DNA from: Candidatus Omnitrophota bacterium
Lineage (GTDB): Bacteria > Omnitrophota > Gorgyraeia > Ghiorseimicrobiales > Ghiorseimicrobiaceae
Length of the DNA stretch: 64,000 nt
Direction: 5' to 3'
NCBI GenBank assembly: GCA_030681595.1
Contig: JAUXSB010000055.1
Span: 364-64,363 of the forward strand
Both the position numbers and the translations under genes were made by a program. Positions 4,734 to 33,902 of the stretch are shown here, piece after piece. The notes beneath the pieces are model-generated. The model saw nothing but the letters and a program-made list of their open reading frames with translations. It was not told where the DNA came from and ran no database searches. Position 1 is the first letter of the stretch, and each line of letters begins with the position of its first letter.

Positions 4734-4853
4734 CCTCGTTAGAGATTGCAAGTATTTCACATTTGGTAAAATTGCACCTTGAGGAAGCATTAGCTAATAT
4801 AAAATTTAGCCCCCTATAGACGCCCCGAAGTTTCGGGGCTATCTCTAATGGGG
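4734..4853. mobile_element. MITE-like element, copy 1 (~120 bp). TIRs 'cctcgttagagat' and 'atctctaatgggg'. Subterminal hairpin 'tagacgccccgaagtttcggggct'.
   Basis: Terminal inverted repeats and subterminal hairpin shared with the copies at 14949, 16093 and 16764. Begins 2 nt after the pseudopilin stop. Confidence 0.6.
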
Positions 4854-4866
4854 TAAATTTCCCAAA

Positions 4867-5223
4867 ATGTCTATTAATCTTCGTCGCGGCGCTGTTTTAC
4901 TATTAACAATAATAATTATTTCTTCGCTTACCTTATTTGGGATGAGTTTGGTTAATTTAACGCTGTCCCGCATCAGTAGCGTAGATTTGGAAATCGAGAA
5001 AGTAAAAGCTTTGTATCTAGCTGAAGCAGGTATAGCAGAATCGCTCTATGAGTTAAAAAAAGGGATTGACCCCGGTCAAGACGGCATCGGCGTTATAAAA
5101 TCTGCTAAATTCGGCGATGGAACGTTTGAAGTTACTTATAATCCCGCAATGTTTACCTTTACGGCTGTCGGCCGCGTAAATAAAACTGAAAGAGCGGTGC
5201 AGCTAAAATGTGTCGGCGGATGA
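4867..5223 (+). CDS. Minor pseudopilin, PilX/GspK-like N-terminal domain protein.
   Basis: N-terminal 'RRGAVLLLTIIIISSLTLFG' hydrophobic segment typical of the PilX_N domain. Sits inside the pilus/T2SS cluster. Confidence 0.4.
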   Translation: MSINLRRGAVLLLTIIIISSLTLFGMSLVNLTLSRISSVDLEIEKVKALYLAEAGIAESLYELKKGIDPGQDGIGVIKSAKFGDGTFEVTYNPAMFTFTAVGRVNKTERAVQLKCVGG

Positions 5224-5660
5224 TGAAAAACGCACAGCGCAAAACGCACAGCGCAAAACGCAAAAAAGCATTCACTTATATCGAAATGGTAATTACCGTA
5301 GTGGTAATCGCCATCTGTTTTGTGCCTTTGATACAGATGTTTTCCAGTTCGATTGGCGAGGTGATCTATGCGGGGGATAAGCTTACCGCGCTTAACCTCG
5401 CCCGCGAAGAAATGGAAAAGTTTAGGAATTTAAACTTTACCGAAGTACAGCTTTTGTCTTTGGGTAACATGATTACGCCCGCGAAAAGCGAGCCGCCTTT
5501 AAAAAGAAATAGGGCGAATTGGCGTATTGAGCGTGTATTAAAGGAAAATTCCGATCCTTTAGAGGTAAATATTATTGTTTGGCGCCAAGCCAAAACGCCG
5601 CAAAAGATACTGGAATTGGCTACCTTAGTTGAGGATTTAGAGTGGACAGAAGAGGATTAA
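5208..5660 (+). CDS. Minor pseudopilin with a prepilin-type N-terminal methylation domain. The true start is probably an internal ATG near 5220.
   Basis: 'AFTYIEMVITVVVIAI' prepilin motif after a basic leader. The leader contains a tandem 13-nt duplication ('acgcacagcgcaaa' x2). Confidence 0.6.
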   Translation: MCRRMMKNAQRKTHSAKRKKAFTYIEMVITVVVIAICFVPLIQMFSSSIGEVIYAGDKLTALNLAREEMEKFRNLNFTEVQLLSLGNMITPAKSEPPLKRNRANWRIERVLKENSDPLEVNIIVWRQAKTPQKILELATLVEDLEWTEED

Positions 5661-6877
5661 CCCTTATTGAGTTATTGTTAGTAGTTATTCTGGCGGCTAC
5701 GGTAATAGGCGTAGTAAGTTTAGTCTTTAGAAATAGCTTAGATGCTTGGAGGGTGGGTGAGTCAGAGGTTTCTTTGCAGCGCGAGGCACAGAAAATAATG
5801 GAAGAAATGATAGAGGGCGGGGATAGAATCCCGGCTATCCGTGAGGCCTTGGAGGTAGTTGAAGCGACAGAAACTTCTTTTGGTTTTGTGCCATTTTGGA
5901 TAGATTATTCTAATGACTATAGAAAAGAATCAAACGAATTTATTTTAAGCAAGAAAGTCAAAGCCGGCAGTTCTGTTCCGATAGGGCAAATCAAAGCTCC
6001 GGGCGCCAAGCAGTTTTCTTCAGTGCCGACCATTTTTATATATAACAAAGAAAAAGGGCCTAACTCTCACGAAGATAAAGTTAGATTTATTAATCCTATA
6101 CCCGTAGGTTCTGACGTAAGAATCCTGTTTCATCCGGATTCTTCGTTAGAAGATAATGTAATTATGAGGTATTTTTGGGATGATAAGTCCAAACGGATAT
6201 TCCGTACATATAAAGGCGAGACTAATGATGTAATGAAATATGCGAAGAAGATAAAGGTCGTGGGTTTAAAATTACTTTATTACGACAATCTTAATCATCG
6301 CCTTGAAGCATTTTATTCGGCCCAGCCGGGTGATTCAGTCTCTTCAGCTCGAGCTTCGGCAATCCCTCTTTCTGCGATTGGAATAGAAGTTACATTAGAA
6401 GACGGCTCAATAAAACGGGAGTTATCTTCTTTTGTTAGTATCAGGACATTAGGGGGGAATTTAGGGAGCGGAATTATATTGGGCGAGGGATCGGAGGTTA
6501 GTATTCCGGACAGCCGCCATATTAGGACTCTAGTTTTGGATAATCTTGGCGGAATAGGGGATAATGATACAATGGAGTTGGAGATCAGTTCCGTTTTAAG
6601 CTCGACTTGGAAAATTAGTGTTAATTTCGGCATCGTTAACAACGAACCGTATATACTTGGTTTTGAAGTTGAATACCCTAAAGGCACCGTTGTGTATTCA
6701 AACGACCATAAAAGGCCTGCTAATAGCGGATTAAATCTCCTTAGGCTGGGCAACGATTATTATGATTACGACGATGATATTCATGCAGAAGATGTTGTTA
6801 GGATAGAGGGCAATGTTGTAAAGCTGAAGGTAGAAAAAATGAATATAGGGGCGGCGGCGCTGTTCGTGCGCCCGTAA
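5642..6877 (+). CDS. Large minor pseudopilin (GspJ/PilW-like) with a prepilin-type N-terminal domain.
   Basis: 'GLTLIELLLVVILAATVIGVV' class-III signal motif. 411 aa. Overlaps the upstream gene (translational coupling). Confidence 0.7.
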   Translation: MDRRGLTLIELLLVVILAATVIGVVSLVFRNSLDAWRVGESEVSLQREAQKIMEEMIEGGDRIPAIREALEVVEATETSFGFVPFWIDYSNDYRKESNEFILSKKVKAGSSVPIGQIKAPGAKQFSSVPTIFIYNKEKGPNSHEDKVRFINPIPVGSDVRILFHPDSSLEDNVIMRYFWDDKSKRIFRTYKGETNDVMKYAKKIKVVGLKLLYYDNLNHRLEAFYSAQPGDSVSSARASAIPLSAIGIEVTLEDGSIKRELSSFVSIRTLGGNLGSGIILGEGSEVSIPDSRHIRTLVLDNLGGIGDNDTMELEISSVLSSTWKISVNFGIVNNEPYILGFEVEYPKGTVVYSNDHKRPANSGLNLLRLGNDYYDYDDDIHAEDVVRIEGNVVKLKVEKMNIGAAALFVRP

Positions 6878-6888
6878 AATTCGGAGAC

Positions 6889-8610
6889 TTGATAATGGAA
6901 AAGGCGGATAAAAGAAGGGTATTAATAGGTGAGATTCTGTTAAAGCAGGGAAAAATTAATTCTAAGCAATTAGATGAAGTGTTGCAGGAGCAGCGTGCTA
7001 CAGGAAAGCCTTTGGGCGATATATTAGTTCAGAGCAAAATTGTCAGCGAAGAAGAGGTGGTTTTGCTCTTAAGCGAGCAGCTGAAGATTCCTTATGTAGA
7101 CTTAAATTCGTATTCGATAGACGCAGGGGTATTGTCTTTTATGCCGGAGGCGGCGGCTCGAAAATTTGAGGCAATGCCTCTTTTTAAAATAGGAGACACT
7201 ATTACAGTAGCAATGGTTGACCCCCTGGATATAAGCATTGCGGATCAGATTACCCAGGTTATTAAATGTACGGTAGAACCTGTTTTTGCGACTCCGTCAA
7301 GCATTAAAGCGGCTATAGATAAATATTACGGCGTGACCGGGATAAAATCATTTGATTATGCAGCGCAGCAGATAGCTACCGCAGAATTGCTTCCGCAGGC
7401 TGTGCAGTCAGAAAAAGAGAAAAAAGCCCAGATTTATCAGATGGCTCAGGCGGCTCAGGAGACACCTGTTGTTAAGCTTGTAAATTCGTTTATCGAAGAT
7501 GCGGTTGTTAATGGTGTCAGCGATATTCATCTTGAGCCGGCGGATAACGTATTGTTTGCGCGTTATAGGATAGATGGTGTGCTCTACGATGTAACGGCGC
7601 CGCCTAAAAAATTTCAGGACGCGATTATTTCCCGTGTGAAAATTATGGCAAATATGGATATTGCCGAAAAAAGGCTTCCTCAGGAAGGCCGCATACAAAT
7701 GCGGGTAAAAAATAAAGATATAGATTTAAGGGTTTCAACATTCCCGACTATTTACGGAGAAAATTTAGTCATTCGTATATTAGACCGCAGTAACATTTTA
7801 TTAGGTTTAAAAGATCTGGGTTTGGATTCTGATACGCTTACGCGATTTGAGTCTTTAATCCGTAGGCCTTACGGCATAATTTTAGTTACCGGCCCGACGG
7901 GATCAGGGAAAACTACCACACTTTATTCCGCCCTAAATACAATTAATTCAACCGATAAAAACATAATTACACTGGAAGACCCCGTGGAATATAAAATAGA
8001 GCGTATCCGCCAGTCCCAGATTGATGTAAAAACAGGGCTTACTTTTTCCCGGGGGCTTCGTTCAATTTTAAGGCAAGATCCCGATGTGATTATGGTGGGT
8101 GAAATCCGTGATTTGGAAACCGCAGAAATTGCAATACACGCCGCGCTTACCGGGCACCTCGTTTTTTCTACGCTACATACTAATGATGCTGCGGGAGCCG
8201 TCGGGCGCCTTATTGATATGAATATTGAGTCGTTTCTAATTTCTTCATCTTTGGCGGGCATTGTTGCTCAGCGGCTCGTGCGTTGTATCTGTAATGATTG
8301 TAAAGAATCTTACAGGCCACAGGAAAGGATAGTCAAAGAACTAGGCCTTGAGAGAGAATCATTATTATATAGAGGCAAGGGCTGTTCTAAATGTAGAAAT
8401 ACAGGTTACAAAGGCAGGACGGGCATTTTTGAGTTGCTTCTTCTGGATAATTCCGTTAAGGAATTAATTATTGCCAAGGCATCCTCGGATAAAATAAGAA
8501 AAGCCGCATTTAGCGCTAAGTCGGCCACACTTTACGAGCAGGGTATCGTAAAAGTTAAAGCAGGTGTTACTACAATAGAAGAGGTGATGCGCCTGACAAT
8601 AGAGGAATAA
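6889..8610 (+). CDS. Type II secretion / type IV pilus assembly ATPase (GspE/PilB family).
   Basis: N-terminal T2SSE_N-like domain. Walker A 'GPTGSGKTTT'. Asp and His boxes. C-terminal tetra-Cys 'CNDC...CSKC'. Confidence 0.9.
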   Translation: MIMEKADKRRVLIGEILLKQGKINSKQLDEVLQEQRATGKPLGDILVQSKIVSEEEVVLLLSEQLKIPYVDLNSYSIDAGVLSFMPEAAARKFEAMPLFKIGDTITVAMVDPLDISIADQITQVIKCTVEPVFATPSSIKAAIDKYYGVTGIKSFDYAAQQIATAELLPQAVQSEKEKKAQIYQMAQAAQETPVVKLVNSFIEDAVVNGVSDIHLEPADNVLFARYRIDGVLYDVTAPPKKFQDAIISRVKIMANMDIAEKRLPQEGRIQMRVKNKDIDLRVSTFPTIYGENLVIRILDRSNILLGLKDLGLDSDTLTRFESLIRRPYGIILVTGPTGSGKTTTLYSALNTINSTDKNIITLEDPVEYKIERIRQSQIDVKTGLTFSRGLRSILRQDPDVIMVGEIRDLETAEIAIHAALTGHLVFSTLHTNDAAGAVGRLIDMNIESFLISSSLAGIVAQRLVRCICNDCKESYRPQERIVKELGLERESLLYRGKGCSKCRNTGYKGRTGIFELLLLDNSVKELIIAKASSDKIRKAAFSAKSATLYEQGIVKVKAGVTTIEEVMRLTIEE

Positions 8611-8611
8611 A

Positions 8612-8700
8612 TTCCGCCTGACTCCCGCCCGAGCCAATGCCGTTCGGGCGCGGTCATTCAGATAGGTCCGCCTGGCTTCATTCGGGCAGGCCCGCATAAC
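8612..8700. repeat. Hairpin-rich intergenic repeat, 'cgcccgagccaatgccgttcgggcgcggtc ... ggcttcattcgggcagg', related to the element at 52255-52300.
   Basis: Shared core 'cgcccgaNcNaatNNNNNttcgggcgcggtc' plus 'ggcttcat' at both loci. May also act as a terminator for gspE. Confidence 0.45.
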
Positions 8701-8923
8701 GACTTTAAGGGAGCCGCAAATTGTTAACCTATTTTTTACATTTACCTTATTTGCCGCGTTACTAATTCTATCTTTTTTTTCTCCTGCTACAAATACCGCT
8801 ATTTTTTGGGTTAGGTTTTTCTGGTCGTTAATTGTTTCTTATTTCGGTTTTCTTATCTATAGAAGCCGGAAGATTTATCCTTACCGCGCCATCCTTTTTA
8901 TTCTAACCGCGTTTTTTTTCTTT

Positions 8924-10404: not shown

Positions 10405-10407
10405 CCT

Positions 10408-12594: not shown

Positions 12595-13717
12595 ACTATA
12601 CCTTATTTTAGGAAGTAATATCTGTATTAGTTTAGCGGTTGCTTTTATAATTGCGGTTAGTCCGCCGCCTAATACCGTGCATAACCTTATTTCTCTTGAT
12701 AAAGAAATAATTAAGCCGGCAATGTGGGAAAAGTTTGAATGTCTTGGAGTGCAGTGTGAATTGTGCCCATTTCGCTGTTATCTCCCTGAAGGCGCCCGCG
12801 GGATATGCCGGGTGAGGATGAATGTGTCGGGCAAGTTAAAAACCCTTGTTTATAATCAACCGGTAAGCGTGCATATTGACCCTATTGAAAAAAAACCGGT
12901 ATATCATATGTTGCCGGGAAGCCGCATATTTTCTATTGCCACCGTCGGCTGTAATTTAAGGTGCGCCTTTTGCCAAAATTGGGAAATTTCGCAATGTTAT
13001 CCTGAACAGGCTACGGGTAGGATAATGACACCGCAGGAAGTAGTGGATGAGGCAGTAAAGTCGGGGTGTGATTCTATCGCTTATACTTATTCCGAACCGA
13101 TAGTTTTTTATGAATACGTTTTGGATACGGCAAAGCTTGCAAAAGAAAAGGGTTTAAAAAATGTTTTAGTCAGCGCCGGCTACATCAATAGCGAACCTTT
13201 AAGAAAACTTGCCCCTTATTTTGACGTGATTAAAATTGACTTAAAGGGATTTAGCGAAAAATTTTATCGGGAGGTGGTAGGCGGAGAGCTGAAGTTTGTA
13301 TTAGAAACGCTAAAAGAATTAAATAGGATGGGTGTCCTTGTTGAGGTGGTTAATCTTGTTGTGCCCACTTTAAATGACAATATGGATGAGATTAAAAAAA
13401 TGTGCCAATGGATTTATCAAAATTTAGGCCGGGATACGCCGTTGTTCTTCTCGCGGTTTGGCCCGCAATACCGCCTTACAAATCTGCCGCCTACGCCCAT
13501 AGAAACCCTGGAGAAAGCCCGCGACGTTGCCTTAAAAACAGGGCTTAGGTATGTATATATCGGAAATGTTACAGGGCATCCGTCAGAAAATACTTATTGC
13601 CCTGTCTGCGGAAAAATCCTTGTGCGCCGCTACGGTTACGCCATATTGGAAAATAATATTGCTAAAGACGGTAAATGTCCGTTTTGCGGCGAAAAAATTC
13701 CCGGAGTATGGGAGTAG
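12581..13717 (+). CDS. AmmeMemoRadiSam-system-type radical SAM enzyme (PFL-activase-like), with an N-terminal hydrophobic anchor.
   Basis: N-terminal Cys cluster 'CELCPFRCYLPEGARGICRVR'. Radical SAM 'CNLRCAFCQNW'. C-terminal 'CPVCG...CPFCG'. Overlaps the upstream gene by 14 nt. Confidence 0.7.
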   Translation: MKNIKLYLILGSNICISLAVAFIIAVSPPPNTVHNLISLDKEIIKPAMWEKFECLGVQCELCPFRCYLPEGARGICRVRMNVSGKLKTLVYNQPVSVHIDPIEKKPVYHMLPGSRIFSIATVGCNLRCAFCQNWEISQCYPEQATGRIMTPQEVVDEAVKSGCDSIAYTYSEPIVFYEYVLDTAKLAKEKGLKNVLVSAGYINSEPLRKLAPYFDVIKIDLKGFSEKFYREVVGGELKFVLETLKELNRMGVLVEVVNLVVPTLNDNMDEIKKMCQWIYQNLGRDTPLFFSRFGPQYRLTNLPPTPIETLEKARDVALKTGLRYVYIGNVTGHPSENTYCPVCGKILVRRYGYAILENNIAKDGKCPFCGEKIPGVWE

Positions 13718-13727
13718 GCCGTGGTTC

Positions 13728-13756
13728 TTGACAAATTCGTTTGATTAAGGTATACT
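13728..13756 (+). promoter_or_regulatory. Sigma-70-like promoter: TTGACA, 17-nt spacer, TATACT.
   Basis: 'ttgaca aattcgtttgattaagg tatact' read directly, about 100 nt upstream of the sirC-like ATG at 13858. Confidence 0.5.
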
Positions 13757-13857
13757 TTTGTTTTGCATAGCATTTATCCGCATAAGTATTTGCGAGGCAA
13801 GTAGTTAAAATTTTAAAAATATTTTTTTCTGCGAGTTTGTGAAAAAAATAACAATCT

Positions 13858-14496
13858 ATGCCTAAATATTATCCTATAAATCTAAATTTAGAAGGTAAAA
13901 AGTGCGTTGTGGTTGGCGCGGGTAGTGTTGCCGAACGTAAAGTAAGGCGCTTGCTTGAATGCGGCGCAAGAGTAGAAGTGGTCGCTCCCGTTGCCACAAG
14001 ACGATTAGAGAAATTGGCGCGCGCCGGAAAAATAACTTTAAAGAAAAAACATATAAGTTTAAGGGATATTGATAATTCTTTTTTGGTAATTTCTGCTACC
14101 GGCGATAGAAGAATTAATAATTTGGTATCGCGTTATTGTCAGGAAAACCGTATTTTGGTTAATGTGGCGGATTCTCCGTATGAATGTAATTTTACTTTGC
14201 CTTCGATAATCAAGCGAGGAGATTTGCTTATCGGTATATCTACTTCGGGCGCAAGCCCCGCGCTTGCCAAAAAAATCCGCAAGGACTTAGAGAAAATTTT
14301 TGGTAAAGAATATGCGGCATTCTTAAGCCTGATGAAGCGTCTTCGTCCGAAGGTAATCGCAAAAATTGAGAACTTGAATACCAGGAAAAAATTCTTTGAA
14401 AAGGCGGTTAGTCGCGGCATAATTCAATTATTAAAGAGAGGCAAAGAAAAACAGGTAAAAGGAAAATTGGAGCAGATGTTAAAAAATGTGCGTTAA
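13858..14496 (+). CDS. sirC: Precorrin-2 dehydrogenase / sirohydrochlorin ferrochelatase (SirC/Met8-like; CysG N-terminal domain).
   Basis: 'KKCVVVGAGSVAERKVRRLLECGARVEVVAP' Rossmann motif and overall CysG-N architecture. 212 aa. Confidence 0.75.
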   Translation: MPKYYPINLNLEGKKCVVVGAGSVAERKVRRLLECGARVEVVAPVATRRLEKLARAGKITLKKKHISLRDIDNSFLVISATGDRRINNLVSRYCQENRILVNVADSPYECNFTLPSIIKRGDLLIGISTSGASPALAKKIRKDLEKIFGKEYAAFLSLMKRLRPKVIAKIENLNTRKKFFEKAVSRGIIQLLKRGKEKQVKGKLEQMLKNVR

Positions 14497-14956
14497 TCCG
14501 TCAATAGATTTTATATTAGGCTGTAAAAGCACATACTTTCTCTTGCATATTATCGCAATCCATATAAGCTATTTGGCGTTTTTTTCTGCTTTTCTTTCCG
14601 CGCTGCTCTATCTAATTCAGGACAATAATTTAAAAAATAAAAAATTAAATTCCATGTTTAGCCGCCTGCCGGATTTATCTGTATTAGACAGATGGAATTA
14701 TATATCTATTGGCCTGGGTTTTCCCGTGCTGACGCTTTCGATTGTAGGCGGTTTACTTTGGCTTAAGGGTATTGCGGGAATTTATTGGGTGTGGAATACG
14801 CGCGTGATTTATTCGTTGGTTTTATGGCTTCTCTATGCCATTATCCTGCATGTAAGGTTATCTGCCAAAATGCGGGGAAGGAAAGTCGCGTATCTTTCTA
14901 TACTTGCCTTTTTTATCATCGTATTTAGTTTTTTCAGCGCTTGTTCATCCCGTTAG
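14486..14956 (+). CDS. HemX-like CcsA-family membrane protein (truncated cytochrome-c-assembly-like protein, as found upstream of hemA in hemAXCDBL operons).
   Basis: C-terminal similarity to the CcsA paralog at 29324 ('YAIILHVRLSAKMRGRKVAYLSILAF' versus '[26 protein letters not shown]'). The stop codon lies inside the TIR of the adjacent MITE. Confidence 0.6.
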   Translation: MCVNPSIDFILGCKSTYFLLHIIAIHISYLAFFSAFLSALLYLIQDNNLKNKKLNSMFSRLPDLSVLDRWNYISIGLGFPVLTLSIVGGLLWLKGIAGIYWVWNTRVIYSLVLWLLYAIILHVRLSAKMRGRKVAYLSILAFFIIVFSFFSACSSR

Positions 14957-15068
14957 AGATTACGGATAGAACTATATACGGACAATTAAGATATATAGAA
15001 CATGAGGTTATTGCGGTGGTTATAGTAAATAGACGCCCCGACAGATATCGGGGCTATCTCTAACGGGG
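14949..15068. mobile_element. MITE-like element, copy 2 (120 bp). TIRs 'cccgttagagat' and 'atctctaacgggg'. Subterminal hairpin 'tagacgccccgacagatatcggggct'.
   Basis: Same TIRs and hairpin as the other copies. The left TIR supplies the last codons and the stop (…cgt tag) of the hemX-like gene. Ends 5 nt before the hemA ATG. Confidence 0.6.
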
Positions 15069-15073
15069 CAAGA

Positions 15074-16138
15074 ATGAAGTTAATTGTTTTAGGAATAAAT
15101 CACAAAACAGCTCCGGTAGAAATCAGAGAAAAGCTGTCTTTTAGCGCTAACGAAGTTATCCGCGCTAATCGGTCGTTAAGAGACACGCTTTCTTTATCGG
15201 AATGCCTGATTTTGTCTACCTGCAACCGCGTTGAAATTTATGTTGTTGCGCGCGATGATTGCGCAGGTGGCATAAAGCGGTTTTTAAGTAAGTTGCGCAA
15301 TATAGAAATAAGCGAATTTGAAAAGCGGCTTTATATCTATGAAGATAGTGATGCGGTAAAGCACTTATTCCGCGTAGCCGCCGGGCTTGATTCTATGGTG
15401 ATAGGTGAGATGGAAATATTAGGCCAGGTTAAAATCGCCTATCAGGATGCATCCGAAAGTAAAACCTTAGGTAAATTATTAAACCGTTTGTTTCAAAAGA
15501 CATTTAATGCTGCCAAAAAAATCCGCACCGAAACTTTAATTACGCGCGGCTCGGTATCGGTTAGTTCGGTAACGGTGCGCCTGTCAGAGAAGATTCTCGG
15601 GCACTTAGCAGATAAAAAAGTTTTGGTTATCGGAGCAGGAACGATAGGGGAGCAGTTGCTGCGATACCTAAAAAAGAACGGCGTAAAGATTATTGTAGTC
15701 GCTAATCGTACATATGAAAAGGCATTGGTTTTAGCGGATAGATTCGGCGCAACTGCCATAAAATTTGATGATTTCCCGCAGGATTTAATCGACGCTGATA
15801 TCGTGATTAGCTCAACCGGTGCTCCGCATACGATAATCCATAAAGATGATGTTTTGCGCCTTATGCCTAAGCGCCATCAGCGGCCGCTTTTTTTTATTGA
15901 CTTGGCAGTCCCCCGTGACATAGAGGCAGAAGTAAATAAGATTGACAACGTATATCTTTATAATATAGATGATTTGCAGAAGATCGTAGACGAAAACCTG
16001 AGCTTACGTAAAAATGAATTGGATAGCTGTAATGAGATTATCGAGAGCGCAGCCCTGCATTTTAAAAACTGGTTGGTTAAAGAGAGCTTTACCCCGTTAG
16101 AGATGAGGTTGAGTCCGACGGAAGGCGAAATTCGTTGA
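15074..16138 (+). CDS. hemA: Glutamyl-tRNA reductase.
   Basis: 'MKLIVLGINHKTAPVEIREKLSF', 'CNRVEIY' and an NADPH-binding 'VLVIGAGTIGE'. The final ~15 codons ('FTPLEMRLSPTEGEIR') are encoded by MITE copy 3. Confidence 0.9.
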   Translation: MKLIVLGINHKTAPVEIREKLSFSANEVIRANRSLRDTLSLSECLILSTCNRVEIYVVARDDCAGGIKRFLSKLRNIEISEFEKRLYIYEDSDAVKHLFRVAAGLDSMVIGEMEILGQVKIAYQDASESKTLGKLLNRLFQKTFNAAKKIRTETLITRGSVSVSSVTVRLSEKILGHLADKKVLVIGAGTIGEQLLRYLKKNGVKIIVVANRTYEKALVLADRFGATAIKFDDFPQDLIDADIVISSTGAPHTIIHKDDVLRLMPKRHQRPLFFIDLAVPRDIEAEVNKIDNVYLYNIDDLQKIVDENLSLRKNELDSCNEIIESAALHFKNWLVKESFTPLEMRLSPTEGEIR

Positions 16139-16213
16139 TTATGGAAGCGCAATTTTTGTTAGCAAATTTATTTTGAATAGACGGCCATCTAAGGACGGCT
16201 ATCTCTAACGGGG
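16093..16213. mobile_element. MITE-like element, copy 3 (121 bp). TIRs 'ccccgttagagat' and 'atctctaacgggg'. Subterminal hairpin 'tagacggccatctaaggacggct'.
   Basis: Overlaps the 3' end of hemA (stop at 16138 is inside the element). Ends 11 nt before the hemC ATG. Confidence 0.6.
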
Positions 16214-16224: not shown

Positions 16225-17277
16225 ATGAAGAATAATTGTATAATTATCGGCTCACGCGGCAGTAAATTAGCGCTTGCGCAGGCAGAGTTAGTTAAAAATA
16301 ATCTTAAAAATAATTATTCGTTTTTAACAATAGAGGTTAAAGTAATTAAGACTACCGGCGATAAGATTTTAGATGTGCCGCTTGCTAAAATTGGGGATAA
16401 GGGGTTATTTACAAAAGAGCTGGAAGAGGCATTATTAAGAAGCGAAATTGATTTAGCGGTGCACAGTATGAAGGATTTGCCAACGGATATACCTAAGGCT
16501 CTAGAAATCGGCGCGATAACGGCGCGCGAAGAAGCATGCGATGTTTTGGTTTCTCGCGAAAGTTTTACTATTAAAGCTTTGCCGAATAATGTAAAAGTCG
16601 GAACCAGCAGCCTGCGCCGCAGAGCACAGCTTTTATCTTTAAGGCCGGATATCCAAGCATTGGATTTACGCGGAAATTTAGATACGCGCTTGGCGAAATT
16701 AGACAGCGGTTTATATGGCGCGATCATTCTTGCTTATGCCGGGATAAAGCGATTGGGGCTTAACCCCGTTAGAGATAATTTATCGACCTTATATATAGAT
16801 ACAAAACTTATTTTAGGAAGCGATAGCGTATCCGAAGGTCTTAGCGTTATAGACGGCCGCCTGCGGCGGCCTATCTCTAACGGGGTAAATTTATCTATGA
16901 CAAGGATATCTTTTGACGAGATGCTTCCGCAGGCAGGCCAGGGTGCCTTGGGGATTGAAACCCGTAAAGGTGATTTCGATGTGCTGAATTTAATTAAAAC
17001 CCTGGATGATAGCGATTCGCGTTTATGTATCGAGGCAGAGCGGGCTTTGCTTTCTGGGTTAGGCGGCGGATGCCAAGTGCCTATCGGCGTATATGCCAAG
17101 ATAGAAGGCGGCGATGTTAATATAAAAGCAGGCGTATTTTCTTTAGACGGCAAAACCGTAATTAAAGACGAAATCCGTGGTAAGAAGAATGAAGCTGTAG
17201 TACTAGGTAAGCAGCTGGCTGATTTGTTACTTAAAAAAGGCGCAAAAAATATTTTAGAAGAGGTTTATCATGCTTAA
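16225..17277 (+). CDS. hemC: Porphobilinogen deaminase (hydroxymethylbilane synthase), carrying an in-frame ~45-aa insertion encoded by a MITE-like element.
   Basis: 'LALAQAELV', 'GDKILDVPLAKIGDKGLFTKELE', 'VGTSSLRR' and 'GGCQVPIG' HemC motifs. 350 aa compared with ~310 aa typical. Confidence 0.85.
   Translation: MKNNCIIIGSRGSKLALAQAELVKNNLKNNYSFLTIEVKVIKTTGDKILDVPLAKIGDKGLFTKELEEALLRSEIDLAVHSMKDLPTDIPKALEIGAITAREEACDVLVSRESFTIKALPNNVKVGTSSLRRRAQLLSLRPDIQALDLRGNLDTRLAKLDSGLYGAIILAYAGIKRLGLNPVRDNLSTLYIDTKLILGSDSVSEGLSVIDGRLRRPISNGVNLSMTRISFDEMLPQAGQGALGIETRKGDFDVLNLIKTLDDSDSRLCIEAERALLSGLGGGCQVPIGVYAKIEGGDVNIKAGVFSLDGKTVIKDEIRGKKNEAVVLGKQLADLLLKKGAKNILEEVYHA
16764..16885. mobile_element. MITE-like element, copy 4 (~122 bp). 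Perfect 14-bp TIRs 'ccccgttagagata' and 'tatctctaacgggg'. Subterminal hairpin 'tagacggccgcctgcggcggcct'. Inserted in-frame inside hemC.
   Basis: TIRs read directly. The hemC ORF continues through the element without a stop, encoding 'NPVRDNLSTLYIDTKLILGSDSVSEGLSVIDGRLRRPISNGVNLSM'. Confidence 0.65.
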
Positions 17278-18971: not shown

Positions 18972-20135
18972 ATGATAAACTGCACTCGTTTACTTTGTGG
19001 AAAATTAGGCCTTCAGGATGAAATCCGTTATAAAAAGGGTAAGCCCGCGGATACCAATAGGCCGATTGTGGTCTGGAATTCTACGCGCCGCTGTAACCTA
19101 AAATGTATTCATTGCTATATTGACGCAAAAAGAACGCAGGATGTGGGTGAGCTTACTAAAGAAGAAGCTAAAGCATTAATTGATGATTTAGCGCAATTTG
19201 GCGCGCCGGTATTTTTATTTTCCGGAGGTGAGCCGTTTATCCGCGAGGATTTGTTTGAATTAGGTAAGCATGCCAAGGATAAAGGCTTGCGCACGGTAAT
19301 TTCGACTAACGGCACATTAATTACCGACGATATGGCAAAAAAAGTAAAAGATGCCGGTTTTTCTTATGTGGGTATTAGTTTAGACGGTTTAGAAGCGACC
19401 AATGATAAATTTCGTGAACAAAAAGGAGCTTTTAAAAAAACTTTGGAAGGTATCAGGAACTGCTTGAAAAACAACGTGCGCGTGGGCCTGCGTTTTACAA
19501 TCAATAAACATAATTTTAAGGATGTTGCCGGCATATTTGATTTAATAGATGGAGAAGGCATTCCGCGCGCCTGTTTTTACCACTTGGTTTATTCGGGGCG
19601 CGGAAGCGAAATGATAAAAGATGACCTGGATCATAAAGAAGCACGTGACGCCATAGATTTAATTTTTGAGCGTTCCCGAAAACTCTGCGCTAAAGATAAA
19701 GACGTGGAAATTTTAACCGTAGATAATCATACGGACGGAGTTTATCTGTATCTAAAATTGAGAAAAGAAGACCCGAAGCGGGCAGAGGAAGTTTTAGAAT
19801 TGCTTAAAATTAACGGCGGCAATAAATCCGGTATTGGGATTGCTGATATAGATAATTTAGGGAATGTTCATCCTGACCAATTTTGGAGAGGTTATACCTT
19901 CGGCAATGTGAAAGAACGTAAGTTTAGCGAGATTTGGATGGATGAGGGCAATGAATTATTGCGTAATTTACGTAACCGCCTGCCGCTTTTAAAGGGAAAA
20001 TGCGGCATCTGCCACTTCCAGGACATCTGCGCCGGAAATTTCCGCGCCCGTGCCGAGGCATTCTACGGTGATACTTGGCAGGAAGACCCGGCGTGTTATT
20101 TGACGAAGGATGAGGTGCTAACTGTTCGGCAATGA
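18972..20135 (+). CDS. Radical SAM / SPASM-domain heme-biosynthesis enzyme of the NirJ family (AhbC/AhbD-type).
   Basis: 'RRCNLKCIHCY' CxxxCxxC. C-terminal Cys cluster 'CGICHFQDICAG'. Located inside the heme cluster. Confidence 0.7.
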   Translation: MINCTRLLCGKLGLQDEIRYKKGKPADTNRPIVVWNSTRRCNLKCIHCYIDAKRTQDVGELTKEEAKALIDDLAQFGAPVFLFSGGEPFIREDLFELGKHAKDKGLRTVISTNGTLITDDMAKKVKDAGFSYVGISLDGLEATNDKFREQKGAFKKTLEGIRNCLKNNVRVGLRFTINKHNFKDVAGIFDLIDGEGIPRACFYHLVYSGRGSEMIKDDLDHKEARDAIDLIFERSRKLCAKDKDVEILTVDNHTDGVYLYLKLRKEDPKRAEEVLELLKINGGNKSGIGIADIDNLGNVHPDQFWRGYTFGNVKERKFSEIWMDEGNELLRNLRNRLPLLKGKCGICHFQDICAGNFRARAEAFYGDTWQEDPACYLTKDEVLTVRQ

Positions 20136-20408
20136 AAGTCTTACGCTCCGCACTGAAATCTTTTGCCGACCGCTACAGTTTATGGCTCGTTCGCTTGCCA
20201 GCCCGATAATGTCGTTCTGGCGGGACGGAATTCCCTTCGGTCAGTTCCGTCGCTCACTCGCTATAAAACTTTGCAGTCATTTGCCAAAAGATTTCTAATG
20301 TGCTTACGCGTAAAACTTTCATTACCTTGCAAAGCATGTTTAGCTAAATCGTAAATTCGCTTCGAAAATACCAGCTTCGTTAAAAGTATTTGGAGAATTT
20401 GATTAAAT
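20136..20408. repeat. ~270-bp structured intergenic element, paralog of 18776-18971.
   Basis: See 18776-18971. Shared sequence blocks in the same order. Confidence 0.5.
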
Positions 20409-21416
20409 ATGTCGTATCCAAAAATAAGAATGAGAGATAGGCGAAAGGATGAGGCGACGCGCAAGCGGTTTCGCGAGACCGCACAAGTGTCGGCAAGTGA
20501 CCTGATCATGCCGGTTTTTGTTAAAGAGGGTATAGTAAAGAGAAAAGAAATCAAGTCAATGCCGGGGATATATCAGTTTCCGTTAAGAGAAGTAGCGGTT
20601 GAGGCAAGGAAGATTTACGATTTAGGTATTCCGGCGGTGATTTTATTCGGTATTCCTAAGTATAAAGATGAAATCGGCTCATCCGCTTATGATGATAACG
20701 GCATAACACAGGAGGCAATCCGCATAATTAAAAAGAAGGTTCCCATGTTAACCGTGATTGCCGATGTTTGTATGTGTGAATATGTCTCCCACGGTCACTG
20801 TGGTGTTATTAAAAAGAAACCAGAAACCAGTAACCAGAAACCAGAATTTGATGTGGACAATGACGAAACGATAAAGATATTAGCAAAAATCGCGGTTTCG
20901 TATGCTAAGGCCGGCGTAGATGTGGTGGCGCCAAGTGCTATGATGGATGGGCAGGTGAAAGCGATAAAAGGGGCATTAGTAAAAAATAATTTTCCAAAAA
21001 TAAAAATTATGTCGTATTCCTCAAAATACGCCTCAAGTTTTTATGGGCCGTTTAGGGATGCGGCAGAATCGCCTCCGCAGTTTGGCGACCGCAAGACTTA
21101 TCAGATGGATTATTATAATAGTGATGAGGCAGTATTAGAGGCAAAATTAGATATTGGCGAAGGTGCTGATATGGTGATGGTAAAGCCCGCTTTGGGGTAC
21201 CAGGATATAATTTACCGCTTAAAGAAAGAGCTTAAATTCCCGCTTGCCTGTTACAGCGTCAGCGGCGAGTACAGCATGATTAAGGCGGCGGCTTGTGCCG
21301 GGTGGCTGGATGAGAAAAAGGTTGTTTTAGAAATGTTAACCGGCTTTAAGCGCGCGGGTGCTGATAAAATAATTACCTATTACGCGAAAGCCGCAGCAAA
21401 ATGGTTTAAAACCTAA
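20409..21416 (+). CDS. hemB: Porphobilinogen synthase (delta-aminolevulinate dehydratase), with a short in-frame insertion made of AACCAGA heptamer repeats.
   Basis: 'CMCEYVSHGHCGV' Zn-site motif and active-site lysine context. Insertion 'KKKPETSNQKPEF' encoded by 'aaaccagaaaccagtaaccagaaaccagaa'. Confidence 0.9.
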   Translation: MSYPKIRMRDRRKDEATRKRFRETAQVSASDLIMPVFVKEGIVKRKEIKSMPGIYQFPLREVAVEARKIYDLGIPAVILFGIPKYKDEIGSSAYDDNGITQEAIRIIKKKVPMLTVIADVCMCEYVSHGHCGVIKKKPETSNQKPEFDVDNDETIKILAKIAVSYAKAGVDVVAPSAMMDGQVKAIKGALVKNNFPKIKIMSYSSKYASSFYGPFRDAAESPPQFGDRKTYQMDYYNSDEAVLEAKLDIGEGADMVMVKPALGYQDIIYRLKKELKFPLACYSVSGEYSMIKAAACAGWLDEKKVVLEMLTGFKRAGADKIITYYAKAAAKWFKT

Positions 21417-25640: not shown

Positions 25641-25674
25641 AGCGCATAGAAATTTTACAAGTTTTATCTTTTTT

Positions 25675-27516: not shown

Positions 27517-27588
27517 TGGCGATGGCGGCTAAATTAAACCCGGAATTTATATCAGGGTATAATCCGGGTTGAAGAGGAGGGTGTTTAG

Positions 27589-30103: not shown

Positions 30104-32864
30104 GAGGAGAGCACTATTATATTTTATAATTATTTTCTTGTGCGCACCTGCCGTTTACGCTTTCGAAAATGCCGATTGCCTTGCTTGCCACCAGGAAAAA
30201 AATTTTACTACAGAGCGTCAAAATAAGACAGTTTCGCTTTATGTAAACAAGCAGGAATTTAAGCAATCCGTTCACGGCGGCCTCGTATGCATTACCTGCC
30301 ACGCCGACCTTACTAATAGCGATTTTCCCCATAAAACACCTCTGCCGCCTGTAAATTGCATAATTTGCCATAAGGATATGCAGAAAGGGTTTTCAGGCAG
30401 CGTTCATGGGAAAGCTTTGGATAGAGGCGATAATCTTGCTCCCCGGTGCCAGAGTTGCCATGGCGCACATAACATCCGTTCTGTAAAGGATAAGGATTCT
30501 AATCTGTCCGCGTTGCGCGTTCCCTTTGTCTGCGGTTCATGCCACAGCGAAGGAAGCCCAGTGCAACTTCAACGTGAGATACACCAGAGTCACATTTTAG
30601 AGAATTATTCGGAAAGTATCCACGGAGAGGGCCTTTTTAAAAAAGGCCTAATCGTAAGTGCTACCTGTGTTTCCTGCCATGGCGCGCACGAGATATACCC
30701 TCATACAGACCCGCGGTCGTCAATCGCGCATGAAAATGTCGTAGATACCTGCCTAAAATGCCATGCTCAGATTGAAGAGGTTCATAGAAAAGTAATTAAC
30801 GGCGAATTATGGGAGGATAGGCCGCAAGCTATTCCTGTTTGTGTTGATTGCCACGAGCCGCATAAGGTGAGAAAAGTTTTTTATGAGCAGGGTGTGGCAG
30901 ATAAGGATTGCCTTTTGTGTCACGCGAAAGAGGAAATTAAATCATCGTCTGACGGCCGCTCTCTCTTTGTAAATTATGATGAGCTCAAGGGTTCTATGCA
31001 TTCTAAAACCTCCTGCGCTAAATGCCATAGTGAAGTTTTGCCTTCAAAAGAGCGCGCATGCGAAACAATAAAGTCAAAAGTTAATTGTGCGGTTTGTCAT
31101 AGCGATCAGGTGGGGCAGTATCAGCAAAGCACTCACGGCAAGCTTTATAATCAAAAAGATCCCAATGCGCCGTCATGTATAGAATGCCATGGAGCGCATT
31201 CTGTATTAAGCAAGAATAATGTTACATCGCAGACGTATCCAACAAATGTGCCGGTGTTGTGCGCTAGATGCCATAGAGAAGAAGAAAAGGCCGCGATTCG
31301 TTATCAGGGCAAAGAACATGAAATACCTGAGCATTATACGGAAAGTATCCACGGTAAGGGCTTATTGAAGAGTGGGCTTGTGGTAACAGCTATGTGCACT
31401 AGCTGTCATACGGCGCATATGGAATTGCCGTCACAGGATCCGCGCTCAAGCGTTAACCGTAGTAATATCGCCTCTACTTGTGCTAAGTGCCATAAAGGAG
31501 TTTATGAAAAATATATGGGCAGTATTCACGCCCCAGGGAAGAGCAAAACCCCTGATAAGCTTCCAGTATGCAGTGATTGTCATAGCGCGCATTCAATTAA
31601 GCGCACAGATATGGATACATTTAAATTTGATATTATGAATATCTGTGGCAAATGCCATTTAGATATCTCCAAAACATATTTTGAGACTTTTCATGGCAAA
31701 GCCACCAAGCTTGGTTATGCTAAGACTGCCAAATGTCATGACTGTCATGGGGCGCATGAGATCTTGCCTCCTGAAGATGCTCACTCCAGCTTAAGCCGTG
31801 AAAATATTATTTCTACATGTCAAAAATGCCATCCGGGCGCAACCAAGAGATTTGCAGGATATTTAACGCATGCCACTCATCACGATCCAAAGAAATACCC
31901 TTGGATTTTCTTGACTTTCTGGGCGATGACCGCGCTTCTTGTCGGCACATTTGTAGCCAGCGGGATTCATGTACTTTTATGGCTTCCAAAATCTTTGCAA
32001 ATGAGGCGGCTCTATCCGTCAAAAGCTTACGACCCTAATGAAAAGCAGTACATAAGGTTTTCTTTATTAAACAGGATACTTCATGCGGTAATGATTGTAA
32101 GTTTCTTGACCCTTTCTATTACCGGGATGACGCTAAAATTTTCTTATACGAAATGGGCAATTTTTATCTCGCGTCTTTTAGGAGGGTTTGAGGTTTCCGG
32201 GTTTCTGCACCGCTCGGCCGCGGTTTGCTTATTTGGGCTTTTTGCTGTCCATATTTGGGATCTCCTGCGTCGTAAGCGTTGTGAATTTAGAACTTGGAAA
32301 AACATGCTTTTGGGCCCAAACACGATACTTTTTACATTAAAAGACGTGCGTGAATTTATCGCGACAATTAAATGGTATATGGGCAAAGGTGAACGGCCGC
32401 AATACGGGTGCTGGACTTATTGGGAAAAGTTTGATTATTTCGCGGTATTTTGGGGTATTGCGGTTATCGGTTTTTCAGGGCTTATGCTTTGGTTTCCTGA
32501 AATCTTTACCAGAATTTTACCGGGTTGGGTCATTAATGTCGCGACCATTGTCCATAGCGACGAGGCCCTGTTGGCTGTCGGTTTTATTTTTACAATACAT
32601 TTTTTCAATACGCATTTTCGGCCGGAGAAGTTTCCTATGGATACGGTTATTTTTACAGGACGCCTGCCTTTAGAAGATTTAAAGCATGAAAGGCCGGCTG
32701 AATATGAAGAGCTTCTGGCGCGTAAGGAGTTTGAAAAACGCCTTGTCCTTCCCATGCCTCCAAAAGCAATGAAAACAATTAGGATTTTTGCCTGGACTGC
32801 GCTCATAATAGGTTTAAGCCTTGTTGTCTGTATTATTTATACGATGATATTTGCATATAAATGA
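30093..32864 (+). CDS. Giant multiheme cytochrome c (~19 CxxCH) fused to a C-terminal cytochrome-b (HydC/FdnI-like) membrane domain; second CbcL-like protein.
   Basis: 19 CxxCH motifs counted. Signal peptide 'LLYFIIIFLCAPAVYA'. C-terminal TM domain 'ILHAVMIVSFLTLSITGMTLKF...HRSAAVCLFGLFAVH...'. 923 aa. Confidence 0.8.
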   Translation: MRHKRRALLYFIIIFLCAPAVYAFENADCLACHQEKNFTTERQNKTVSLYVNKQEFKQSVHGGLVCITCHADLTNSDFPHKTPLPPVNCIICHKDMQKGFSGSVHGKALDRGDNLAPRCQSCHGAHNIRSVKDKDSNLSALRVPFVCGSCHSEGSPVQLQREIHQSHILENYSESIHGEGLFKKGLIVSATCVSCHGAHEIYPHTDPRSSIAHENVVDTCLKCHAQIEEVHRKVINGELWEDRPQAIPVCVDCHEPHKVRKVFYEQGVADKDCLLCHAKEEIKSSSDGRSLFVNYDELKGSMHSKTSCAKCHSEVLPSKERACETIKSKVNCAVCHSDQVGQYQQSTHGKLYNQKDPNAPSCIECHGAHSVLSKNNVTSQTYPTNVPVLCARCHREEEKAAIRYQGKEHEIPEHYTESIHGKGLLKSGLVVTAMCTSCHTAHMELPSQDPRSSVNRSNIASTCAKCHKGVYEKYMGSIHAPGKSKTPDKLPVCSDCHSAHSIKRTDMDTFKFDIMNICGKCHLDISKTYFETFHGKATKLGYAKTAKCHDCHGAHEILPPEDAHSSLSRENIISTCQKCHPGATKRFAGYLTHATHHDPKKYPWIFLTFWAMTALLVGTFVASGIHVLLWLPKSLQMRRLYPSKAYDPNEKQYIRFSLLNRILHAVMIVSFLTLSITGMTLKFSYTKWAIFISRLLGGFEVSGFLHRSAAVCLFGLFAVHIWDLLRRKRCEFRTWKNMLLGPNTILFTLKDVREFIATIKWYMGKGERPQYGCWTYWEKFDYFAVFWGIAVIGFSGLMLWFPEIFTRILPGWVINVATIVHSDEALLAVGFIFTIHFFNTHFRPEKFPMDTVIFTGRLPLEDLKHERPAEYEELLARKEFEKRLVLPMPPKAMKTIRIFAWTALIIGLSLVVCIIYTMIFAYK

Positions 32865-32924
32865 GCTTAAGGGGCATAGTATTTTTTGAATAGGAGTTGT
32901 TAATTTATTCGGGGGTGGGTAGCC

Positions 32925-33902
32925 ATGCATAACAAAACCAGAAACCAGAAACCAGAAGCCAGAAGCCAGAAAATTATTTCTTTTTACCGGTTTGTATGTT
33001 TGATTATATTTTTGTCTTCTTCCCATGTTTCTTTTGTAATTGCGCAGGAGAAGGAGTTCAAAAAGGGATGCCGCGCCTGCCATAGCGAACAAATAGATAA
33101 ATGGGATGCGTCAGAGGTCAGGCATTTTCCTTACGCTCGGGAAAAATGTGAGTCTTGCCATGCGGCGGAGCATAAAAAATTTACCCCGTTAGAGAAAAAC
33201 AGCGATAAGGTTAACAGTGAAAACATGGTTAGTAATGGTGAATTAACTCAGGCATCAGCAGGTACTGTTGGAGAAAGTTCTCTAACGGGGTTTACCGCAG
33301 AACAGGAGAAGCCTTGCTTAATCTGCCATGATTTAAATTCGGAAAAAATCAAAAAAGCGCATTTTTCCGGCGATTTAACCGGCGTAAATTGTTTTAACTG
33401 TCATTATACGCATGCCGCGGATAAAAAAGGCCTGCTTAAGGAATCTGTACATGAGCCGTTTGTTTCAGGTATGTGCGATGCCTGCCATAATATCAGCGCT
33501 GAAGGTAAAATAGAAGTGAAGGGACAAACCAAGAAAATCTGCCTTGCCTGTCATTCCAGTTTACTAACAAAGGACGATACAGTAAAACATTCCGGTTATG
33601 ATATGCTGGAATGTGTTGATTGTCACAATCCCCACACTAGTAGTGAAAAATGGCTTTTAAAGAAGAAAATAACACAAATTTGCTTTGATTGTCATGGTAA
33701 AGAGGAGGCGGCAAAGCACCCGTATGATGTAGTGCCTTCACAAAAAATAAATCTTGACAAAGGCAATGAAATATGGTTAACTAATGATAGGCAAATGAGT
33801 TGCGTAAGCTGCCATAATCCTCATTCAGCAAAAATTCCCTTTCTGCTGAGAGAGTCCCTCGAGGATGGGAAGCTCTGTAATATTTGTCATCCAAAACAAT
33901 AA
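32925..33902 (+). CDS. Decaheme c-type cytochrome with an N-terminal signal anchor. Contains a heptamer-repeat-encoded N-terminal stretch and an internal MITE-TIR-bounded insertion.
   Basis: 10 CxxCH (CRACH, CESCH, CLICH, CFNCH, CDACH, CLACH, CVDCH, CFDCH, CVSCH, CNICH). 'TRNQKPEARSQK' is encoded by (aaccaga)n. Confidence 0.8.
   Translation: MHNKTRNQKPEARSQKIISFYRFVCLIIFLSSSHVSFVIAQEKEFKKGCRACHSEQIDKWDASEVRHFPYAREKCESCHAAEHKKFTPLEKNSDKVNSENMVSNGELTQASAGTVGESSLTGFTAEQEKPCLICHDLNSEKIKKAHFSGDLTGVNCFNCHYTHAADKKGLLKESVHEPFVSGMCDACHNISAEGKIEVKGQTKKICLACHSSLLTKDDTVKHSGYDMLECVDCHNPHTSSEKWLLKKKITQICFDCHGKEEAAKHPYDVVPSQKINLDKGNEIWLTNDRQMSCVSCHNPHSAKIPFLLRESLEDGKLCNICHPKQ
33184..33292. mobile_element. 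MITE-related insertion, copy 5 (~109 bp) inside the decaheme cytochrome ORF. Bounded by 'ccccgttagaga' and 'tctctaacgggg', with an internal sequence unlike copies 1-4.
   Basis: Both 12-nt termini match the TIRs of the family in inverted orientation at the expected spacing. Encodes the in-frame linker 'FTPLEKNSDKVNSENMVSNGELTQASAGTVGESSLTGF' between heme motifs. Confidence 0.45.

Follow-up and report, generated by a model that had tools for sequence, protein, structure and literature searches.

In a 64-kb window of DNA from a Candidatus Omnitrophota metagenome-assembled genome (MAG), by which we mean the whole stretch of 64,000 nucleotides analysed from contig JAUXSB010000055.1, we found five related elements of 107–122 bp each with the ends CCCCGTTAGAGAT and ATCTCTAACGGGG. 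These are very probably copies of a non-autonomous DNA transposon, a miniature inverted-repeat transposable element (MITE), mobilised in trans. This reading is based on the inverted repeats at their termini and a 4-bp target-site duplication, on the large number of dispersed copies, some of them nested or in tandem, and on the empty sites found in relatives. The element inserts with a 4-bp duplication and has been mobile since the split from a syntenic relative; two insertions into protein loops have been tolerated, and others have rewritten a stop codon, a C-terminal tail and two start-proximal regions. A preliminary description of the window had proposed a MITE-like mobile element in five copies of about 120 bp, and both points hold, with small corrections of the coordinates (14948, 16092 and 33290) and terminal repeats of 12–13 bp. 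The elements represent a real, previously uncatalogued MITE family.

Five copies in the Omnitrophota window

The 13-mer CCCCGTTAGAGAT, allowing up to two mismatches, matches the window 10 times, and these matches form five inverted pairs; 0.88 were expected, and none of 100 shuffled sequences reached 10 (maximum 3). Copies 3 and 4 have perfect repeats, while those of copies 1, 2 and 5 contain 1–2 mismatches. Each copy folds more strongly than its own shuffles (z between -3.8 and -5.0) because its two ends pair. Apart from the ends, an alignment of the copies reveals only ATAGACG followed by a G+C hairpin as a common part, and interior identity among the five (0.49–0.67) compares with 0.55 +/- 0.04 for shuffled sequence. 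The hairpin, which had been ascribed to copies 1–4, is clear in copies 1, 2 and 4, where it is rich in G+C and ends 2 nt before the right repeat, but degenerate in copy 3; copy 5 has only a weak, different hairpin. The large open reading frames (ORFs) around the copies are all on the + strand, and copies 1–4 carry their hairpin on the 3′ side. The target-site duplication is perfect in copy 5, matches at three of four positions in copies 1 and 4, and is not recognisable in copies 2 and 3.

Three copies lie between genes on the + strand. Copy 1 (4734–4853; ends CCTCGTTAGAGAT and ATCTCTAATGGGG; hairpin 4822–4839; flanks TAAG and TAAA) is located between a prepilin-like gene, whose stop codon TAA is at 4730–4732, and the next ORF, which starts with the ATG at 4867. 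Copy 2 (14948–15068; hairpin 15035–15054; flanks TTCA and CAAG) separates a CcsA-like gene from hemA. The TAG in its left repeat (14954–14956) is the stop codon of the CcsA-like gene, as proposed earlier under the name hemX-like, and the GGGG of its right end lies 5 nt upstream of the hemA ATG. Copy 3 (16092–16213; flanks TTTA and CGAG), between hemA and hemC, provides the last 16 codons of hemA (about 15 had been estimated) together with the stop, so that the protein ends in FTPLEMRLSPTEGEIR instead of the LKHHES of the syntenic relative described below.

The other two copies, also on the + strand, are read through in frame. Copy 4 (16764–16885; hairpin 16855–16871) is inside hemC; its 122 bp plus the 4-bp duplication (TTAA at 16760–16763, TAAA at 16886–16889) amount to 126 bp or 42 amino acids, slightly fewer than the 45 or so first given. 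Copy 5 (33184–33290) has ends of an AGAGAA/TTCTCT subtype, and its orientation is uncertain. It is inside a decaheme cytochrome gene, where 107 bp and a perfect TTTA duplication (33180–33183 and 33291–33294) give 111 bp and thus 37 amino acids, not 38, between heme motifs 2 and 3 of the ten CXXCH motifs. Translation of copies 4 and 5 is inferred from these intact frames.

Three further observations concern the window. A degenerate solitary sequence, CGCCGTTAGACAG, at 4677–4689 (+) in the prepilin-like ORF, 45 nt upstream of copy 1, is possibly a repeat half-site, and a chance match may explain it. Copies 2 and 3 stand in direct orientation on either side of hemA (14948–16213; 1,266 bp), an arrangement that resembles a composite transposon; we found no evidence of hemA and these two copies moving as a unit. 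A tRNA gene at the window end (63543–63616) is unrelated to the elements.

Empty sites in relatives

A syntenic Omnitrophota relative (ENA ERZ21828306, contig-100_39; approximately 80–86% nucleotide identity) is empty at all five positions, and the BLAST alignment blocks between the relative and the window break exactly at the element ends. Compared with the relative, the window has net extra bases at copy 3 (+127), copy 4 (+126) and copy 5 (+111). The site of copy 1 is empty in relatives L208 and L209, and at the site of copy 3 hemA and hemC overlap without an element. At the site of copy 5 the relative reads AAATTTACCGCG, where the window has AAATTTA[CCCC...GGGG]TTTACCGCAG. The site of copy 2, a 25-nt spacer in the relative, does not correspond to a simple insertion. 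The relative itself harbours a copy elsewhere, directly after a stop codon. All five copies therefore seem to have arrived after the split of the two genomes, and with all five sites empty there are no orthologous copies in which selection on residents could be tested. More than 100 independent assemblies show this architecture, which excludes an assembly artefact.

Apart from the elements, the relative has extra genes (L121 6956–7603 and 14081–16074, compared with window 13717–13858 and 20135–20409), namely a phosphoribosyltransferase, an ORF of unknown function and Fic/RhuM, which are absent from the window. The multiheme cytochrome paralogs downstream of the cytochrome gene (window 34.9–39 kb) are arranged differently in the two genomes.

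The ortholog comparison proposed in the preliminary description agrees with the empty sites: copies 4 and 5 are insertions, and the closest HemC and cytochrome orthologs lack exactly 42 and 37 residues, the length of the element plus its 4-bp duplication. The seven closest HemC orthologs (300–311 amino acids; 75–81% identical) have no insert, and removal of 126 bp from hemC (122 bp and one 4-bp repeat) yields GLNLSMTR, colinear with the GLKLSMTK of the orthologs. Residues 2–180 and 233–349 of the window HemC align to residues 2–180 and 192–308 of E. coli HemC. In an AlphaFold model built with 19 sequences, the core is confident and the predicted local distance difference test score (pLDDT) falls below 50 at residues 182–220. 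The model thus shows the insert as a disordered loop located at the hinge between domains, in line with the surface loop suggested earlier. Other Omnitrophota HemC proteins vary at this hinge too, with unrelated inserts that differ in length. Nine of these proteins (P0042, P0048, P0060, P0063, P0065, P0072, P0083, P0018 and P0045) carry inserts of 8–60 amino acids there (columns 209–279 of alignment A2, which correspond to window hemC codons 180–222), and these contain no recognisable repeat-encoded peptides. Either this hinge loop is generally prone to insertions, or the nine inserts are old, decayed elements.

Six of the seven closest cytochrome orthologs that were aligned (283–295 amino acids) read EHKK|FTAE without an insert, at the point where the window protein reads EHKK-FT-PLEKN...SSLTG-FT-AE. 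The seventh, P0128, which is 60% identical to the window protein, has a different element at the same site: 62 bp with the repeats CCCCGTTAGAAG, at exactly the same TTTA and in frame (22 amino acids; L123 2233–2298). Four orthologs closer to the window protein than P0128 have an empty site. The shared TTTA is either a target hot spot (GTTTAC) or the trace of an old insertion that was followed by seamless losses.

Distribution and anatomy of the family

A scan of public genomes, one per species, with the exact pattern of CCCGTTAGAGA, 75–105 nt and TCTCTAACGGG revealed at least 120 loci with the same ends. The matches listed come from Omnitrophota, Planctomycetota, many lineages of the Candidate Phyla Radiation (CPR/Patescibacteria), Elusimicrobiota, WOR-3, Nitrospirota (Thermodesulfovibrionia), Desulfobacterota, Geobacteraceae and other Deltaproteobacteria, and Clostridia, with other phyla besides; identical ends of 11–12 nt occur in at least ten phyla. 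The viral contigs scanned contained no copy. The statistics of the family are based on 131 copies from about 115 genomes, the window copies among them. The copies are 92–129 bp long (median 119) with the end consensus (C/T)CCCGTTAGAGA(T/C) ... (A/G)TCTCTAACGGG(G/A); CPR copies end in T...A and most others in C...G.

Perfect 4-bp direct repeats flank 82 of the 131 copies, with the consensus T-N-N-A, and the identity of left and right flank positions is 0.71–0.81. At least 15 different 4-mers are duplicated, among them TTTA, TAAA, TGAA, TGAG, TGGA, TTGA, TTCA, TCAA, TTAG, CTTA, CAAG and CGGG. Moreover, one copy is nested within the hairpin loop of another (L001 3773–4160), tandem copies share a single 4-bp repeat (L042 5472–5711 and L008 5898–6279), and near-identical copies occur within one genome, for example L060/L069.

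Searches of existing catalogues gave no counterpart. At the gathering score, Rfam 15 matched neither the whole window nor any of 17 related loci (CPR and three-hairpin copies, see below); window copies 2–4 and the three-hairpin copy in L112 gave no match at this score or at E <= 5. A literature search with the repeat sequence returned unrelated primer matches only, and a second one, on MITEs in CPR or Omnitrophota, gave no relevant paper. Integron attC sites, which end a cassette on its 3′ side, have R″ ahead of R′ (RYYYAAC ... GTTRRRY); this candidate was rejected since the box order is reversed here, the element reading GTTAGAG ... CTCTAAC on both strands. One element-bearing Omnitrophota locus contains an FMN riboswitch (L018 3645–3800), which is unrelated to the elements.

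In-frame copies are rare survivors

The recurring reading frame of the repeats had been taken as a sign of selection for stop-free insertion, which the family as a whole does not support. Each terminal repeat has a stop codon in one frame (TAG in the left, TAA in the right), the length modulo 3 is uniform (47, 44 and 40 of the 131 copies), and 87 of the 131 have no open frame in any of the six. The mean number of open frames per copy, 0.48, is about 2 standard deviations above that of shuffled interiors (0.38 +/- 0.05). Read-through within a long ORF is seen in only six of the 131 copies (approximately 5%), namely the two window copies and those in L003, L036, L087 and L096. The proposed intein-like niche or coding-tolerant design is not supported either. 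All six have a length of 2 modulo 3, which a 4-bp duplication demands, and no stop in the host frame, although our detection method favours in-frame, stop-free copies inside long ORFs. Furthermore, the repeats are read in different frames, as PVRD...ISNG in hemC and as TPLE...SLTG in the cytochrome and hemA. In-silico precise excision, used to detect out-of-frame intragenic copies, gave five weak candidates, mostly spurious long frames; the copy in L007, which has no read-through frame, appears only in this test. The in-frame copies are rare survivors and not the product of design: they survive because the element and its 4-bp duplication together are a multiple of three and happen to contain no stop.

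In-frame fusions of MITEs with proteins are already known from the Rickettsia RPEs, Coxiella QMITE1 and intragenic ERIC and BOX copies (PMC10969869), and the insertions in hemC and the cytochrome gene are a new example of this phenomenon. Like ours, the RPE and QMITE1 elements are palindromic, about 100–150 bp long, and inserted in frame into housekeeping genes where the fold of the protein allows it. However, about half of the RPE copies are intragenic and each RPE family has a conserved peptide, whereas about 5% of the copies are intragenic here and the peptide is not conserved. The few read-through copies, the uniform length modulo 3 and the different repeat frames all set the family apart from RPEs.

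Hairpins and subtypes

About 76 copies have a perfect hairpin of at least 6 bp that ends exactly 2 nt before one repeat. In 67 of them, the six outer pairs are formed in 91% of cells, compared with 68% in shuffles (none of 500 reached this value), although the percentage is inflated because the alignment was drawn from copies that fold. Both sides have changed in 114 cells, compared with 46 in shuffles, and controls with shifted hairpins had at most 51% pairing. The variety of compensated stems is real, and the hairpin near one end is maintained by compensatory changes.

A three-hairpin subtype contains an internal copy of the repeat, CCGTTAGAGRAC, which is able to pair with the terminal repeat instead of the far end. 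It is found in L112 (6312–6419), L044 (4328–4436), L041 (1171–1280), L018 (1525–1636), L007 (901–1011), L060 (2860–2967), L087 (2767–2877) and others, and is kept with compensatory changes in MAGs of Thermodesulfovibrionia, WOR-3, Omnitrophota, Deltaproteobacteria and Saccharibacteria. In its own orientation, at least 10 of 13 such copies have the flanks TTTAC...GTTTAC and none has the complement (TAAA in place of TTTA), away from genes.

Gene orientation, start codons and a possible role in expression

The placement of the elements relative to genes raises the possibility that, although mobile, they are retained as portable expression modules which supply an outward promoter, a 5′ leader or both to the gene beyond the hairpin end; resident copies would then be selected at the level of the host. 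This explanation is compatible with the MITE reading, and we consider it possible but rather doubtful. Among copies with an orientation given by the hairpin, 74 are followed by a gene on the same strand and 18 by one on the opposite strand (p = 3e-9). In CPR copies, the terminal A and the TG of the duplication form an ATG, and a second copy of ATGAA remains at the other end of the element. In 41 of 50 cases, a frame of 100 codons or more starts at this junction ATG. Such junction codons are genuine N-termini, as in MEIRNIAIIAHVDHGKTT (TypA/BipA), MKILLTGGGTGGH (MurG) and MKVILLKDV (ribosomal protein L9); examples are L077 4710–4829, L009 1293–1421, L098 6908–7033 and L020 1402–1521, with about 40 other loci. 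The native upstream regions at the CPR loci mostly have no Shine-Dalgarno motif. In the Omnitrophota subtype, the terminal GGGG is 5–19 nt upstream of the start codon (5 nt in copy 2, 11 nt in copy 3, 13 nt in copy 1), sometimes with the native Shine-Dalgarno sequence in between. However, such placement may also follow from very short intergenic spacers, a preference for TGAA/TAAA targets and purifying selection.

The promoter matches point both ways. Sigma-70-like -35/-10 matches occur in the sense strand of 29 of 103 elements, compared with 14 in antisense and 11.8 +/- 3.3 in shuffles, and outward promoters are known from IS1380 members and Correia elements (PMC9330008; PMC10969869). Nevertheless, the matches are found in only 28% of the elements and at varying positions, and window copies 2–4 have none in the sense strand. 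G.U and A.C mispairs in the repeat stem, counted to probe for a stem at the RNA level, number 12 and 8 and show no strand bias. Leader ORFs opened by the duplicated ATG mostly stop inside the element; only 9 of 36 reach the right repeat, so that coupling through such ORFs is not general. Two further candidates were rejected: that the orientation bias is due to a terminator in antisense, since terminator-like tails in that orientation are rare (7 of 76 copies), and, by inspection, a -10 box in the right repeat that would give leaderless mRNA, as TATCTC/TGTCTC lacks the key A2 and T6.

Mode of transposition and the putative enzyme

The features of the family are those of MITEs: terminal repeats of at least 10 bp, a duplication of fixed length and variable sequence, presence/absence polymorphism, and small, dispersed copies without a transposase gene. 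In the mechanism that we favour, a transposase encoded in trans would cut its target with a 4-nt stagger and so generate the duplication with its T-N-N-A consensus. Most subfamilies carry a G+C-rich, hairpin-forming palindrome of 6–9 bp located 2 nt inside one repeat. Three window copies entered very short operon spacers; there they changed a C-terminal tail, a stop codon and the region just ahead of two starts. The other two entered tolerant protein loops, where they would be translated as inserts of 42 and 37 amino acids.

Among enzyme classes, an IS1380/piggyBac-like DDE transposase is the most likely candidate, which we put forward tentatively, as a lead and not as a result. It is suggested by CCC...GGG termini together with a 4-bp T..A duplication, and by the combination of a repeat, a short spacer and a palindrome at one end only. 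The left end of piggyBac, CCCTAGAAAGATA, is followed by a 3-bp spacer and an internal repeat, whereas the spacer at the other end is 31 bp (PMC5861402; PMC10813416). Its ends are CCC, and it duplicates TTAA, while some relatives use TAAA, TCAA or TTAG (PMC5861402; PMC10813416). IS1380 is the bacterial relative of piggyBac and has outward promoters (PMC9330008). The piggyBac CCCTAGAAAGATA and the element CCCGTTAGAGATA match at 9 of 13 positions, and a copy of IS1678 from the IS1380 family reads TATA(C)|CCTGAAT...ATTCAGG|TATAC. Thus, the elements share with piggyBac and IS1380 a 4-bp (in IS1380, 4–5-bp) duplication that starts with T and ends with A, CC(C)...(G)GG termini and, a few bp inside the terminal repeat of one end, a further repeat or palindrome. 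Unlike these, they target T-N-N-A and not strictly TTAA, and the pairing of their palindrome is kept while its sequence is not. The likeness lies in such cis features only and amounts to resemblance, not membership.

Several observations weigh against the reading as MITEs mobilised in trans by a transposase. Among 120 loci of up to 8 kb, no pair of repeats 0.17–4 kb apart encloses a long ORF, and the long-range pairs that occur are nested or neighbouring MITEs only. No transposase family recurs near the elements, where an all-against-all clustering of 900 ORFs gave housekeeping families only; a tblastn search of the loci with the ISEcp1 transposase had no ISEcp1-like match, and there was no transposase among the 20 window ORFs scanned against Pfam. 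Moreover, 80 environmental IS1380 loci from a profile scan of metagenome contigs, mostly close relatives of ISEcp1, carry the different repeats CCTAGATTC/CCCGGATTC. The interiors of the five window copies have next to nothing in common, although each copy arrived after the two genomes had separated; this is unusual for a recent burst from a master copy. Copies 2 and 3 have no recognisable duplication despite repeats that are perfect in copy 3, and 30 of the 131 elements have no flank relation of either kind. In addition, the flanking 4-mer depends on orientation in the three-hairpin and CPR copies, which a symmetric transposase complex does not predict. Finally, a palindrome conserved in pairing and not in sequence suggests a role as single-stranded DNA or RNA and does not look like the site of one sequence-specific protein that binds double-stranded DNA.

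A wider proposal can be drawn from the same material, namely an undescribed multi-phylum MITE superfamily (CPR, Omnitrophota, Planctomycetota, Elusimicrobiota, Nitrospirota, Desulfobacterota, Bacillota, WOR-3 and others) with a piggyBac/IS1380-like transposase, oriented insertion at translation-start regions, regeneration of the CPR start codon by the terminal A, a portable leader or promoter, and a seamless exit that would make genic insertions reversible. Taken as a whole, we regard this proposal as speculative and improbable.

Alternative explanations

A quite different view is that the elements are miniature integrative elements of a tyrosine-type site-specific recombinase, with the repeats as binding arms and the flanking 4–6 nt as the asymmetric crossover of a circular form (right arm, spacer and left arm, approximately 12-4-12, similar to dif/loxP). 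The tandem junction TCTCTAACGGGA-TGAA-TCCCGTTAGAGA in L042 is indeed a perfect 12-4-12 palindrome, the flanking 4-mer is tied to orientation and subfamily, both near-identical pairs keep the same flank (TAAA in L060/L069, TTTA in L036), and the L123 ortholog has its different element at exactly the same TTTA. We nevertheless consider this explanation unlikely, since empty target sites have no similarity to the arms, at least 15 flanking 4-mers are used, also within one genome (TTGA and TTCA in L031, TGAA and TGAG in L101), no recombinase gene recurs near the elements, and a double-stranded circle of about 120 bp would be sterically unfavourable.

Still less probable is transposition as single-stranded DNA, in the manner of IS200/IS605 or REP/RAYT elements: a Y1 HUH transposase would read the hairpin and insert the element 3′ of a short target that happens to match the four bases at the end of the element. 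In favour of this, the hairpin has kept its structure and not its sequence, the strand bias is strong, and the three-hairpin subfamily follows (T)TTAC, with the TTTA flank in at least 10 of 13 copies, which resembles the target of IS608, TTAC. Y1_Tnp genes (IS200-like, RAYT-like) are present in three of 120 loci: L010 233–985, L059 1875–2531 (-) and L113 3000–3461 (-). However, they are not adjacent to the elements, and in all three loci they are flanked by short G+C hairpins of their own, for example ACTTGGGTGCTCCGCACCCAAGT, which are unrelated to the element repeats; we therefore rejected them as partners. No guide tetranucleotide was seen to co-vary with the flank. IS200/IS605 and REP/RAYT elements have neither long terminal inverted repeats nor duplications, whereas variable 4-mers are duplicated here. 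As in REPINs, two inverted conserved arms enclose a variable spacer of approximately 70–100 nt in intergenic regions, but REPs are themselves short palindromes without a duplication, bound to a lineage and flanking their RAYT gene, and our elements differ throughout. The presence of duplications and terminal repeats also distinguishes the elements from PATEs of IS200/IS605.

Removal of copies 4 and 5 from mRNA or protein as intervening sequences, with mature HemC and cytochrome lacking the insert, is highly improbable: the repeats could form a 13-bp stem joining both junctions and deletion of the element with one duplication restores colinearity with the orthologs, but all six ORF copies are 2 modulo 3 and stop-free, which is needed only if they are translated (with the detection bias noted above), there is no ribozyme or intron match in Rfam and no intein motif, 107–122 nt is too short for known self-splicing introns, and the large majority of copies are intergenic.

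Comparison with bacterial MITEs and implications

As a MITE family, the elements resemble the bacterial Correia/NEMIS, ERIC, RUP, MITEAba12 and Nezha elements in small size, terminal repeats, a short duplication and many copies (PMC10969869). They also share with them a location in transcribed intergenic spacers near genes, folding into long hairpins and occasional promoter-like sequences (PMC10969869). Known MITE families, however, are confined to a genus or family and have shared interiors, whereas in this family, which extends over at least ten phyla, only the ends and one hairpin are kept. Unusual, too, are its strong bias towards the sense orientation and, in CPR genomes, its exact position on genuine start codons.

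The insertions explain why hemC and the decaheme cytochrome are 42 and 37 residues longer than in their close orthologs, why hemA has a foreign C-terminal tail, and why the hemA-hemC overlap of the syntenic relative is broken in the window; such inserted segments should not be read as domains during annotation. MITE families are normally restricted to a lineage, while the ends are conserved here to the base across at least ten mostly uncultivated phyla. This implies either a very promiscuous transposase among bacteria that live together in groundwater and sediment or a strong constraint on the ends, and the element may be usable as a marker of horizontal exchange. Moreover, its position on the start codons of the essential genes rplI, murG and typA could shed light on translation initiation in CPR organisms, whose genomes are streamlined. 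If the piggyBac-like reading is true, a widely used eukaryotic tool family would be linked to an abundant non-autonomous relative in bacteria.

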